Positions 40,115-43,178 of a DNA stretch of 64,000 bases are shown here, piece by piece. Under the pieces are notes generated by a model. That model had not been told where the DNA came from. It saw only the letters and a list, made by a program, of their open reading frames with translations, and searched no databases. How positions within the stretch are numbered: the stretch's first letter is position 1; every line of letters starts with the position of its first letter. Source of the stretch: Escherichia coli (GTDB taxonomy: Bacteria > Pseudomonadota > Gammaproteobacteria > Enterobacterales > Enterobacteriaceae); NCBI RefSeq assembly GCF_044324875.1, contig NZ_CP172185.1; one strand, 5' to 3'. Position numbers and translations under genes: made by a program.

Positions 40115-41062
40115 ATGCGTGTGTTACTGGCACCGATGGAGGGTGTACTCGACTCTCTGGTGCGTGAATTGCTGACCGAAGTTAACGACTACGATCTGTG
40201 CATCACCGAGTTTGTCCGCGTGGTGGATCAACTGCTGCCAATAAAAGTCTTTCATCGCATTTGCCCTGAGCTACAAAATGCCAGCCGGACACCTTCCGGT
40301 ACGCTGGTGCGCGTGCAGTTGTTAGGTCAGTTCCCACAATGGCTGGCAGAGAATGCCGCCCGTGCGGTCGAGTTAGGTTCCTGGGGCGTGGATCTCAATT
40401 GCGGCTGCCCGTCGAAAACGGTTAACGGTAGCGGCGGTGGGGCGACGTTACTCAAAGATCCCGAACTCATCTACCAGGGTGCAAAAGCGATGCGTGAAGC
40501 TGTACCGGCGCATTTGCCCGTCAGCGTGAAAGTGCGTCTGGGATGGGACAGCGGTGAGAAGAAATTTGAAATCGCCGATGCGGTTCAACAGGCTGGTGCT
40601 ACAGAGCTGGTGGTGCATGGGCGGACGAAAGAGCAGGGTTACCGCGCGGAGCATATTGACTGGCAGGCGATTGGCGAGATTCGCCAGCGGCTGAATATTC
40701 CGGTGATTGCCAACGGTGAAATCTGGGACTGGCAGAGTGCGCAACAATGCATGACGATCAGCGGATGCGACGCAGTGATGATTGGTCGCGGGGCGCTCAA
40801 TATTCCCAACCTGAGCCGGGTGGTAAAATATAACGAACCGCGAATGCCGTGGCCGGAGGTAGTTGCTTTGCTGCAAAAATATACCCGTCTGGAAAAGCAG
40901 GGCGATACCGGGTTATATCACGTTGCGCGGATTAAACAGTGGTTGAGTTATTTGCGTAAAGAATACGATGAAGCAACGGAATTATTTCAGCATGTTCGGG
41001 TGTTGAATAATTCCCCTGATATTACAAGGGCTATTCAGGCAATTGATATCGAGAAACTCTAA
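40115..41062 (+). CDS. dusC: tRNA-dihydrouridine synthase C
   Basis: Start at [13 protein letters not shown] (315 aa). Confidence 0.88.
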
Positions 41063-41103
41063 AAAACCATAGTGATGTTTTTTGACAATGTGTTAGCTCT
41101 TTA

Positions 41104-41364
41104 TCAATAGGCCGCACGGTTGTTTGGTGGCGTCAAAATCGCCGAGGCGTTCCCCGAAGGCCGGGGCAGCCCACATGGATGTGGGCTGAGGGCGCGTTTT
41201 ACAGGGATGTTACCTCGCGCCCGACCCGGTAGCCGTAAGGGATAAGCCGAGGGCACCGCGCAGCGGCGATTTTGTTCGCCAGAGCCCGGGGGTGCAGGGG
41301 GCGGCGGCGATTGGTCGCCCCCTGCGCGCTCCTTGCGCCAGTGATTATATGAAGCAATGCACAT
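41104..41364. repeat. GC-rich intergenic element with nested inverted repeats (unclassified)
   Basis: Hairpins cagcccaca-tgga-tgtgggctg and cagggggcg-N12-cgccccctg, flanked by long-range inverted repeat gcgtcaaaatcgccg / cggcgattttgttcgc. Confidence 0.4.
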
Positions 41365-41434
41365 GACAGGAGCGCAACAGGATGAGAGACTGAAATATTC
41401 TCGTTATTTTCGGATCTGATGACATTAATTAATT

Positions 41435-41518
41435 TTAAAATATCATCTTAAATACACCAGTCACCACCAGTAGCCCAATCAGGAAAATAATCAATACGGC
41501 CCAGAGTATAATTTTCAT
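41435..41518 (-). CDS. yohP: Small membrane protein YohP (27 aa)
   Basis: Minus-strand ORF MKIILWAVLIIFLIGLLVVTGVFKMIF; below the ORF-track length cutoff. Confidence 0.75.
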   Translation of the reverse strand: MKIILWAVLIIFLIGLLVVTGVFKMIF

Positions 41519-41741
41519 TGGCGTTCCTTTATTTGTGAGTGCTGAATAAGTATAGGAAAAAACGAAGCCCTTTGCCGTTATCCATAAACTATTAAGATAA
41601 ATCAGAAGATATCATTCACTTAGTGTATATTTTTCTGGATATGTCGTTTTATTGCCACTGATGTATTGCCACGCGAAACTAAAAAATATATCGCAACACA
41701 CGGTAATCTCCGCGCACCTTTTCTTACCTGATTATTCCCCC

Positions 41742-43178
41742 ATGAATCGTGATTCTTTTTATCCAGCCATCGCCTGTTTTCCGCTGTTACTGATGCTGGC
41801 CGGGTGTGCGCCTATGCATGAAACCCGCCAGGCGTTAAGCCAGCAAACGCCCGCTTCACAAGTTGACACCGCATTACCCACGGCGCTGAAAAATGGTTGG
41901 CCAGACAGCCAATGGTGGCTGGAGTATCACGATAATCAACTCACTTCATTAATTAACAATGCACTACAGAACGCACCGGATATGCAGGTGGCTGAACAGC
42001 GCATTCAGCTGGCTGAAGCCCAGGCGAAGGCAGTTGCCACTCAGGATGGTCCGCAGATCGACTTTTCTGCGGATATGGAGCGGCAAAAAATGTCGGCAGA
42101 AGGGTTAATGGGGCCGTTTGCTCTGAACGATCCGGCCGCAGGTACGACCGGTCCGTGGTACACCAACGGTACTTTTGGCTTAACGGCGGGCTGGCATCTC
42201 GATATCTGGGGAAAGAATCGGGCGGAGGTAACTGCTCGCCTGGGTACGGTTAAAGCACGAGCGGCGGAACGCGAGCAAACCCGCCAATTGCTGGCTTGCA
42301 GCGTAGCCCGCCTGTACTGGGAGTGGCAAACCCAGGCGGCGTTAAACACTGTCTTACAGCAAATCGAAAAAGAGCAGAACACCATTATCGCCACCGATCG
42401 CCAGCTATATCAGAACGGGATTACTTCTTCAGTTGAAGGTGTGGAAACCGATATTAATGCCAGCAAAACCCGGCAGCAGCTCAACGATGTCGCGGGGAAA
42501 ATGAAAATTATTGAGGCACGGTTAAATGCACTCACAAATCACCAGACAAAGTCATTGAAGCTTAAATCGGTCGCATTGCCGAAAGTGGCAAGCCAGCTTC
42601 CTGATGAACTGGGGTACTCCTTACTGGCGCGGCGGGCAGATTTGCAGGCGGCGCACTGGTACGTTGAGTCATCGCTAAGCACCATTGATGCGGCAAAAGC
42701 GGCATTTTATCCTGACATCAACCTGATGGCCTTCCTGCAACAGGATGCGTTGCACTTAAGCGATCTGTTCCGTCATTCCGCGCAGCAAATGGGCGTTACG
42801 GCAGGCCTGACGCTACCCATTTTCGATAGTGGTCGTCTTAACGCCAACCTCGATATCGCAAAAGCCGAAAGCAACTTGTCTATCGCCAGCTACAACAAAG
42901 CGGTGGTTGAAGCGGTGAATGACGTGGCGCGGGCAGCCAGTCAGGTTCAGACACTGGCGGAGAAAAACCAGCATCAGGCGCAAATTGAGCGCGATGCCTT
43001 GCGTGTAGTAGGTCTTGCGCAGGCGCGCTTTAACGCGGGCATCATTGCCGGTTCCCGCGTCAGCGAAGCCAGAATCCCGGCGCTTCGCGAGCGGGCCAAT
43101 GGCCTGTTATTGCAAGGGCAGTGGCTGGATGCCTCCATTCAACTCACCGGTGCGCTGGGCGGGGGTTACAAACGCTGA
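41742..43178 (+). CDS. mdtQ: Outer membrane efflux lipoprotein (NodT/OMF family), intact reading frame
   Basis: Start at MNRDSFYPAIACFPLLLMLAGC (lipobox); 478 aa uninterrupted. Confidence 0.8.
   Translation: MNRDSFYPAIACFPLLLMLAGCAPMHETRQALSQQTPASQVDTALPTALKNGWPDSQWWLEYHDNQLTSLINNALQNAPDMQVAEQRIQLAEAQAKAVATQDGPQIDFSADMERQKMSAEGLMGPFALNDPAAGTTGPWYTNGTFGLTAGWHLDIWGKNRAEVTARLGTVKARAAEREQTRQLLACSVARLYWEWQTQAALNTVLQQIEKEQNTIIATDRQLYQNGITSSVEGVETDINASKTRQQLNDVAGKMKIIEARLNALTNHQTKSLKLKSVALPKVASQLPDELGYSLLARRADLQAAHWYVESSLSTIDAAKAAFYPDINLMAFLQQDALHLSDLFRHSAQQMGVTAGLTLPIFDSGRLNANLDIAKAESNLSIASYNKAVVEAVNDVARAASQVQTLAEKNQHQAQIERDALRVVGLAQARFNAGIIAGSRVSEARIPALRERANGLLLQGQWLDASIQLTGALGGGYKR

Follow-up and report, generated by a model that had tools for sequence, protein, structure and literature searches.

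The gap between dusC and yohP in Escherichia coli raises the question of what a short GC-rich stretch of DNA represents there: a gene, the leader of a gene, a structured RNA or a mobile repeat. The window considered here is the whole stretch of 64,000 nucleotides (64 kb) that was analysed, in which dusC ends with its stop codon at 41062 on the plus strand and yohP occupies 41435-41518 on the minus strand, both genes being identified through their near-identity to annotated K-12 records. A sequence-only reading had placed an unclassified GC-rich element with inverted repeats in this gap. The annotated K-12 records of the flanking genes confirm the location, and the GC content is indeed raised, at 0.61-0.70 over 41100-41349 as against 0.33-0.44 on either side. 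The corresponding MG1655 interval, 2,229,066-2,229,437, is without any feature, repeat annotation included, in the RefSeq record.

The element does lie at 41104-41364, as first proposed, but these limits are those of an open reading frame and the element itself is larger, extending for about 305 nt over 41094-41398 (+), with flanks of about 0.35 GC. This is the extent common to E. coli copies at four loci, where pairwise BLAST including the flanks sets the limits of homology at -47..-69 to +220..+236 relative to 41159; the ends were also drawn from a five-copy alignment, and column conservation across the whole family spans approximately 41113 to 41378. The palindromes described from the letters are present as well. 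They comprise two perfect hairpins with arms at 41167-41176/41179-41188 and 41294-41303/41316-41325 (each arm 10 nt, 100% complementary) and a long-range inverted repeat at 41134-41149/41259-41274 (16 nt, 88% complementary, arms 109 nt apart).

The survey of E. coli genomes by BLASTN that had been proposed as a check was performed with megablast on 5,426 complete genomes, and the sequence was found in 5,425 of them, at a median of 3 and a maximum of 8 places per genome. The loci occupied are dusC-yohP, aqpZ-lysO, alx-sstT and asmA-yegH. A full copy is present at alx-sstT in 1,669 genomes, with Box-C-like CCCTCTCCC...GGGAGAGGG palindromes in its place elsewhere, and at asmA-yegH in 40 genomes. 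K-12-like strains have a single full copy, at dusC-yohP; their aqpZ-lysO copy has lost 125 nt internally, between short direct repeats, their asmA-yegH copy is truncated, and both degraded copies are without the two central hairpins described below, which are therefore dispensable at these two loci. This loss weighs against the function that is preferred for the element further on.

Beyond E. coli, a scan with a degenerate pattern in a single genome for each species picked out 113 stretches, three of them chance matches, leaving about 110 true copies in 11 genera (Escherichia, Citrobacter, Enterobacter, Klebsiella, Raoultella, Leclercia, Silvania, Atlantibacter, Pseudescherichia, Pseudocitrobacter and Kluyvera). 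Distant BLAST matches in a plasmid collection include 13 places in one chromosome-sized record of K. pneumoniae and further matches from Klebsiella aerogenes and Citrobacter, those 'plasmid' matches that were inspected being chromosome-sized records or bearing chromosomal genes; a phage collection gave no match to the element. Within the 64-kb window no further copy was found by BLAST or by a covariance-model search with filters off, in which the element scored 186.8 bits and the next match 9.9 bits. Tandem arrays and nested related mini-elements occur in the family. The element in the window belongs to an interspersed repeat family of the Enterobacteriaceae, of which it is one copy.

The minimum free energy of the element is -144.3 kcal/mol on the plus strand (z = -5.1, with none of 200 shuffles folding equally well) and -128.7 kcal/mol on the minus strand. 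Conservation of the fold was assessed in a MAFFT alignment built on the sequence only, with no structure fitted, from 46 non-redundant copies of 11 genera and folded by RNAalifold. The model comprises 54 pairs in 12 helices, and two-sided compensatory changes are observed in 33 of the 54 pairs. Standard pairs are found in 96.9% of cells, compared with 83.8% in the shuffle control and 40-44% in slid controls, and the covariation score of 0.363 is reached by none of 500 shuffles (mean 0.127; slid controls 0.045-0.084). As G-U cells exceed A-C cells in this alignment, by 32 to 10, the plus strand is the folding strand. The structure of the element is under selection on that strand.

The core in the RNAalifold model is predicted to be a long closing helix that encloses two adjacent hairpins. 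The 5' strand of the closing helix (41128-41148, +), made up of P1 and its extension (TGGCG / CAAAATCG / CCGAGGC), pairs with 41246-41252, 41267-41274 and 41277-41281, and 14 of the 18 pairs in these helices 1-3 show compensatory changes. The 3' strands of the closing helices (41246-41281, +) enclose a small hairpin, CCGC-GCA-GCGG, at 41256-41266, whose form in the family is CCGC-GNA-GCGG; helix 10 is 100% paired, with compensatory changes in three of its four pairs. Both adjacent hairpins are enclosed in turn by an inner helix, CGGG/CCCG (41162-41165 / 41225-41228, +, spanning 41162-41228; helix 5), which is 99.5% paired and nearly invariant. Hairpin 1 (41167-41188, +; helix 6) has a 9-bp GC-rich stem, CAGCCCACA/TGTGGGCTG, with compensatory changes in six of the eight pairs counted, and displays A-CAUGGAUG-U (41173-41182). 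Hairpin 2 (41189-41224, +; helices 7-9) consists of a basal stem, GGGCGCG/CGCGCCC, conserved GA...GA flanks and a weak distal stem displaying its motif at 41201-41210 (+). A conserved junction motif, GGGAUAAG / GGAAUAAG (41239-41246, +), contributes a third GGA in nearly invariant columns.

The remainder of the element forms a 3' extension. Hairpin 3 (41294-41325, +; helix 11) has a GC-rich stem of 10-12 bp, with compensatory variants such as CAGGGGGCG/CGCCCCCUG as against UAAAGGGCG/CGCCCUUUA, and a conserved loop containing GGCGA. It is followed by a terminal hairpin (41326-41375, +) whose stem, GCGCUCC/GGAGCGC (41326-41333 / 41368-41375; helix 12, 99.6% paired), bounds a variable insert of about 34 nt, and by a 3' tail common to the copies, AAC-N(14-16)-AUA (41376-41398, +). 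At 41384-41410 there is a weak stem, GAGAG...UUCUC, together with a U-rich run, where a consensus scan made no terminator call.

Comparison with Rfam, likewise proposed as a check, gave TwoAYGGAY (RF01731) as the sole notable match. The window copy scores 28.5 bits (E 0.036 in a search of 801 nt), below the gathering score of 43, and aligns over model positions 1-168, that is, to the whole model with both hairpin loops in register. No other Rfam family, ribozymes and the CsrB/CsrC/Rsm families included, gave a credible match up to E 10; a match to AgvB (22.9 bits, gathering score 56) and matches to snoRNAs and miRNAs were taken as chance. Weinberg et al. 2010 described TwoAYGGAY as two terminal AYGGAY loops with a P1 that is often very long, reaching 24 bp in their supplement, and considered it probably an RNA and not cis-regulatory, with representatives in Clostridia, gamma-proteobacteria (e.g. 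Psychromonas) and human gut metagenome. A junction with two adjacent hairpins, closed by a long P1, is found in the window element, with P1 at 41128-41148 pairing with 41246-41281 and the inner helix within it. Loop 1 is AUGGAU and fits AYGGAY, and loop 2 in the window is AGGGAU, with G for Y; loop 2 in the family reads A[G/U/A/C/-]GGA[U/C/A], with AUGGAU in both loops of some copies from Silvania and Leclercia. According to a 2025 preprint, in which TwoAYGGAY is called 'relatively unexplored', the motif has one very stable and one weak hairpin, and the window element has the same asymmetry. A consistent gene association is absent in both.

The relationship is strengthened by divergent head-to-head pairs, which occur in many genera and in which a more diverged partner copy lies 80-250 nt off. 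Partner copies of Pseudocitrobacter faecalis, P. vendiensis and Kluyvera sichuanensis (L035, L097 and L113) score 49.2 bits against TwoAYGGAY, above the gathering score, and another (L093) scores 32.7 bits. An nhmmer profile made from window-type copies only recovers two such partners over about 250 nt (L035B, E 4.3e-23; L113B, E 5.5e-21), and the window element is therefore homologous to sequences that Rfam would accept. On these sequence comparisons the element is best regarded as a diverged relative of TwoAYGGAY, lying outside the family by Rfam's own threshold, and the label 'unclassified' given to it from the letters does not stand. It differs from TwoAYGGAY in its GC-richness (about 0.66), its score and its second loop, in carrying a further conserved 3' domain, about 100 nt long, that forms two additional hairpins, and in being an interspersed enterobacterial repeat that is often arranged in divergent head-to-head pairs.

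The two loops themselves point to a possible ligand. Hairpin 1 reads CCACAUGGAUGU and hairpin 2 reads UUACAGGGAUGU; both loops can be written A-CA-N-GGA-N-G-U, the hairpin consensus of CsrA/RsmE, with their GGA triplets 28 nt apart. According to a review (PMC7652899), the SELEX consensus of CsrA is RUACARGGAUGU, with ACA and GGA invariant and usually a hexaloop closed by AC/GU, and a single CsrA dimer can bridge sites 10-63 nt apart, with an optimum of more than 18 nt. The motif of hairpin 2 agrees with this consensus at 11 of 12 positions, and its CA-N-GGA-N-G is invariant in 85 of 85 aligned copies above a stem that covaries. Hairpin 2 was left free by the search pattern; that pattern did include the loop of hairpin 1, so that the invariance of this loop across genera is partly forced, but the partner copies, which were found without the constraint on loop 1, also retain CA-N-GGA-N-G in hairpin 1. 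With both strands counted, the 64-kb window contains ACANGGANGT four times, against an expected 1.4, and two of the four are hairpins 1 and 2, on the same strand and 28 nt apart. The element thus displays two hairpins that, as judged from their sequences, conform to the CsrA-type consensus at a spacing that would be compatible with bridging. The stems of SELEX ligands are mostly of 4 bp or less, and CsrA may bind less readily where the stem is very stable (PMC7652899); the stem of hairpin 1, GC-rich and of 9 bp, speaks against binding in this respect.

[quoted passage not shown] The literature searched contained no validation of CsrA binding to TwoAYGGAY, and searches on the locus names with CsrA and on the hairpin sequence itself returned nothing relevant. 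With CsrB, CsrC and RsmX-Y-Z the element shares GGA motifs in hairpin loops that fit the CsrA consensus at a spacing that permits dimer bridging. CsrB and the Rsm sRNAs carry many repeated GGA sites. The window element has far fewer than CsrB, namely two loop sites (ACAUGGAUGU and ACAGGGAUGU, 28 nt apart) and perhaps the third GGA, in about 300 nt; it differs from these sRNAs also in being multi-copy and mobile, where they are single conserved genes, and in having no recognisable promoter or terminator.

A consensus scan called neither a promoter nor an intrinsic terminator around the window copy, and upstream of the copies the best score for a sigma-70-like promoter was 7.06, as against 7.23 in shuffled sequence; neither of the two marks of an independent sRNA gene, a promoter and an intrinsic terminator of its own, was thus detected. 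As no promoter was detected, the element would be transcribed within the transcript of a neighbour, and since no terminator was detected between dusC and the element, read-through from the 3' end of dusC is the most plausible source here. The orientations of the neighbours were determined from crude open reading frame calls around 119 copies, both flanking genes being callable for 85. Among tandem contexts there are 21 sense and 21 antisense copies, so that dependence on read-through would leave many copies with antisense transcription. In six of six annotated loci the element had at first looked co-oriented with the upstream gene, a bias that disappeared in this larger set. Promoter scores no higher than those of shuffles and neutral orientation in tandem contexts both weigh against a transcribed function.

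Taken together, the reading that best fits these data, which is held with somewhat less than even confidence, is that of a recombinationally mobile repeat encoding an RNA module of the TwoAYGGAY class that binds CsrA when transcribed. The plus strand would encode the structured module, and the closing helix with its multi-helix junction would hold the two hairpins side by side, each presenting the A-CA-N-GGA-N-G-U loop. Riding on the transcript of a neighbour, at this locus the 3' end of dusC, the module could be bound by one CsrA dimer bridging both GGA hairpins. It would thereby act as a portable CsrA-binding module, which may titrate CsrA or make what becomes of the host transcript dependent on CsrA, and copies would spread or be exchanged among intergenic sites at the 3' ends of genes, through recombination or some trans-acting activity. 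The data show the repeat family, its covarying structure, its homology to TwoAYGGAY, the match to the CsrA motif and the polymorphism among strains; the transcription, the CsrA binding and any regulatory effect, and likewise the mode of mobility, are inferred. In a bolder and doubtful form of the proposal, mobile intergenic cassettes spread a platform for the CsrA dimer, in either orientation, to gene 3' ends, where they would wire neighbours into the Csr regulon or buffer free CsrA.

The main rival, considered rather unlikely, holds that the element is a selfish DNA repeat whose fold acts as single-stranded DNA, the hairpins and identical loops being sites for a recombinase or transposase and any RNA being incidental; a Y1 transposase of the REP-associated kind, or another enzyme acting on single-stranded DNA, would move or flip the cassette. 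The repeat behaviour and the missing promoter favour it and the loop motif does not. The family is multi-copy, with different loci occupied in different genera, is polymorphic for presence and absence at alx-sstT and asmA-yegH, and contains the tandem arrays and nested mini-elements mentioned above. Of the 85 copies with both neighbours callable, 38 lie between convergent and five between divergent genes, which together with the equal numbers in tandem contexts indicates a REP-like, orientation-neutral placement at gene 3' ends. The G-U (or G-T) asymmetry and the covariation are equally compatible with a structure in single-stranded DNA, a point that bears against the preferred CsrA-binding RNA, and the hairpin at 41256-41266 has a C(GNA)G triloop, a motif that is very stable in DNA. 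Nevertheless, the loop fits the consensus of a known RNA-binding protein, on one strand only, and the homologous Rfam family has been judged a probable RNA.

Orientation is variable within single loci. At dusC-yohP, a site that is essentially always occupied, 3,408 E. coli genomes have the orientation of the window and 2,002 the opposite one, and both orientations are also found at aqpZ-lysO and asmA-yegH, filling exactly the same interval, which favours the selfish-DNA explanation. The two dusC-yohP alleles fill exactly one interval between common flanks; their spacers are non-homologous and the elements only about 89% identical, so that a simple inversion in situ of the whole intergenic cassette is unsupported. 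The dimorphism may possibly reflect orientation-indifferent insertion into palindromic targets, an ancestral head-to-head pair that has lost one of its arms, or allelic replacement through recombination. The polymorphic sites resemble allelic replacement and not clean insertion, which tells against selfish DNA, as does the absence of a transposase gene adjoining any copy examined. The search for a target-site duplication suggested by the sequence-only reading gave none above control, the longest direct word shared by the flanks averaging 5.98 as against 5.97 in mismatched controls. Single copies also have no terminal inverted repeats, their 5' and 3' ends being different; inverted outer ends, GTTCCGTTCAC...GTGAACGGAAC, were seen only in head-to-head pairs. 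Both negatives likewise speak against selfish DNA.

The earlier suggestion that the element is MITE-like accordingly stands in part: it is multi-copy and insertion-polymorphic, but the stricter marks, target-site duplications and terminal inverted repeats, are wanting. In being small, non-coding, multi-copy, polymorphic for insertion and structured when transcribed, it is similar to bacterial MITEs (Correia/NEMIS, RUP and ERIC-like elements), from which it is set apart by the ends of its single copies, the failure to find a parent transposon and the outcome of the phage and plasmid searches described above. It is similar also to REP/BIME, Box C (PIT) and ERIC/IRU sequences, being interspersed, intergenic, mostly at gene 3' ends, foldable and strain-variable, and it often lies beside REP- or Box-C-like palindromes. 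By pattern match, such palindromes lie within 160 nt of about 35% of copies, an association in favour of a selfish repeat; the other 65% are without one, which counts against it, and dependence on REP was rejected on this ground. A REP is an imperfect palindrome of roughly 35-40 nt. The element is far longer, has 12 helices and has no sequence in common with adjacent REPs; it is conserved across genera, whereas the REPs beside other copies are separate and genus-specific sequences, and the judgement that it is neither a REP nor an ERIC holds.

A functional structured RNA unrelated to CsrA, such as a stabilising or RNase-blocking module of the 3' UTR, a binding site for some other protein or a small ribozyme borne by the repeat, is considered unlikely. 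It draws on the same evidence of structure, covariation and strand as the CsrA-binding module, and further on the conservation of unpaired junction nucleotides (GAGGG, CCCGA, AGCC and GGNAUAAG) and of a 3' domain that has no GGA loop; the description of TwoAYGGAY as still unexplored leaves room for it. The sole invariant sequence over a covarying stem, however, is the CsrA-type loop, which occurs twice at a spacing compatible with bridging, and the Rfam search gave no ribozyme or other family in its support.

A cis-regulatory leader or riboswitch, in which a CUCCU...AGGAG stem (41326-41333 / 41368-41375) would sequester a Shine-Dalgarno sequence before an ATG at 41382, is highly improbable. 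The sequence AGGAGCGCAACAGGATG (41368-41384) does resemble a Shine-Dalgarno sequence with a start codon and is paired to an upstream anti-Shine-Dalgarno strand, but the open frame from this ATG has only three codons (ATGAGAGACTGA), the downstream sequence changes from locus to locus, and the gene that follows lies more often on the opposite strand (70 as against 31). Through covariation the stem has become CGUUCAC/GUGAACG in other genera, with the loss of GGAG; AGGAG is thus the strand of a helix and not a conserved Shine-Dalgarno sequence, and as covariation removes the latter, the leader is effectively refuted. A protein-coding gene merits virtually no credence, for although the Pro/Gly/Arg-rich open frame of 86 aa remarked on from the letters exists at 41104-41364 (-), its product is low-complexity, substitutions track base pairs and not codons, the longest open frame changes strand and frame among 46 copies, and single-base indels shift the frame of the window even in close E. 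coli copies. The preference expressed from the letters for a structured RNA or MITE-like insertion over a gene is supported by the conserved covarying fold, the multiple copies and the frame that is not kept.

The element is real and of more interest than an ordinary repeat. About 300 nt long and unannotated in MG1655, the best-annotated bacterium, it shows covariation on a par with that of accepted structured RNAs. Since the motif class and the idea of CsrA binding are both already in the literature, the element is not new in kind; its link to TwoAYGGAY provides a 15-year-old orphan motif with a host amenable to genetics, E. coli K-12, and turns the 2015 prediction on TwoAYGGAY and CsrA into an easily run experiment. 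The orientation dimorphism at an always-occupied locus (3408 as against 2002 genomes) poses a separate question on how repeats move. If mobile cassettes do carry a CsrA platform to gene 3' ends, the element would be a transposable module of post-transcriptional regulation and TwoAYGGAY would gain a function; and if the prediction of CsrA binding is true, a multi-copy class of CsrA ligands that varies between strains would be absent from present models of the Csr network in Enterobacteriaceae.

The intergenic cassette between dusC and yohP occurs in E. coli as two whole alleles, in which the GC-rich structured repeat (hereafter the element) is oppositely oriented, the orientation of the window being that of 3,408 genomes as against 2,002 for the other. 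Both alleles share common flanks, at window 41043-41053 and 41413-41419. In the other allele, exemplified by positions 2430-2816 of the genome stretch L003, the final codons of dusC are changed relative to the window allele, and a 13-bp perfect hairpin, GATAAGCTGCGAT...ATCGCAGCTTATC, is located directly at the dusC end. E. coli strain 118UI is 100% identical to the window over the element region. The mdtQ frame is intact in the window (41652-43178, 508 aa), in contrast to the K-12 records, where mdtQ is annotated as a frameshifted pseudogene; the window thus comes from a strain other than K-12. A weak Rfam match to the anti-GcvB sRNA AgvB (22.9 bits, gathering score 56, E 0.07) lies on the minus strand at window 41352-41412, where it overlaps the element's 3' end in antisense; it was taken as a chance similarity.

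K-12-like strains carry degraded copies of the element (L005 2450-2770; L128 520-815). Their aqpZ-lysO copy lacks 125 nt, deleted between two direct repeats, GGCCGGGG and GCCCGGGGG, while the asmA-yegH copy, which belongs to a second Escherichia subfamily, is inverted and truncated; both GGA hairpins are missing from each of the two copies. At alx-sstT, where K-12-like strains lack the element (L123 770-900), the interval contains CCCTCTCCC...GGGAGAGGG / GGGTGAGGG palindromes, which resemble Box C (PIT, intrastrand-triplex) repeats and were named so after the published description, not by alignment. Many of the Enterobacter and Silvania copies of the element are flanked by these Box-C-like motifs in inverted orientation. 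Genes of the TerC family adjoin two of the four E. coli element loci, namely alx (L125) and yegH (L129), which may be a coincidence.

Copies of Klebsiella type or E. coli type with enterobacterial flanks were also observed on contigs labelled as other taxa (L019, L034, L099 and L122, labelled as a Desulfacinum MAG, a Proteobacteria MAG, a Bacillus sp. of 583 nt and a Sporobacter MAG), and these probably represent contaminated assemblies or bins.

The usual form of the element in Citrobacter, Enterobacter, Pseudescherichia, Atlantibacter, Leclercia, Silvania, Pseudocitrobacter and Kluyvera is a divergent head-to-head pair with inverted outer ends, GTTCCGTTCAC...GTGAACGGAAC, as seen, among others, at L035 2140-2460, L045 9387-9553 and L020 671-837. 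Tandem arrays of element sequence were identified at L006 2043-2760 and L092 7650-8180; in the latter, the 5' part of the element is repeated three times in tandem, with approximately 156 nt per repeat. The K. pneumoniae array (L006) comprises two full copies of the element at a distance of 437 nt, with Klebsiella REPs on both sides of each copy. The Atlantibacter copies (L075, L082) are immediately succeeded on their 3' side by three to five tandem 17-nt repeats, GAACGGAACAAnnCCAC, in which the terminal motif of the element recurs. Some copies (L021, L059, L078 and L080) contain a nested insert of about 80 nt, located between the GAGG and the CCGCG columns of the multi-copy alignment (A3), and a similar sequence is present in L033, but downstream. 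The nested insert has a GCCCCAGGGAUGGGGC hairpin of its own and looks like the element in miniature, with a single hairpin.
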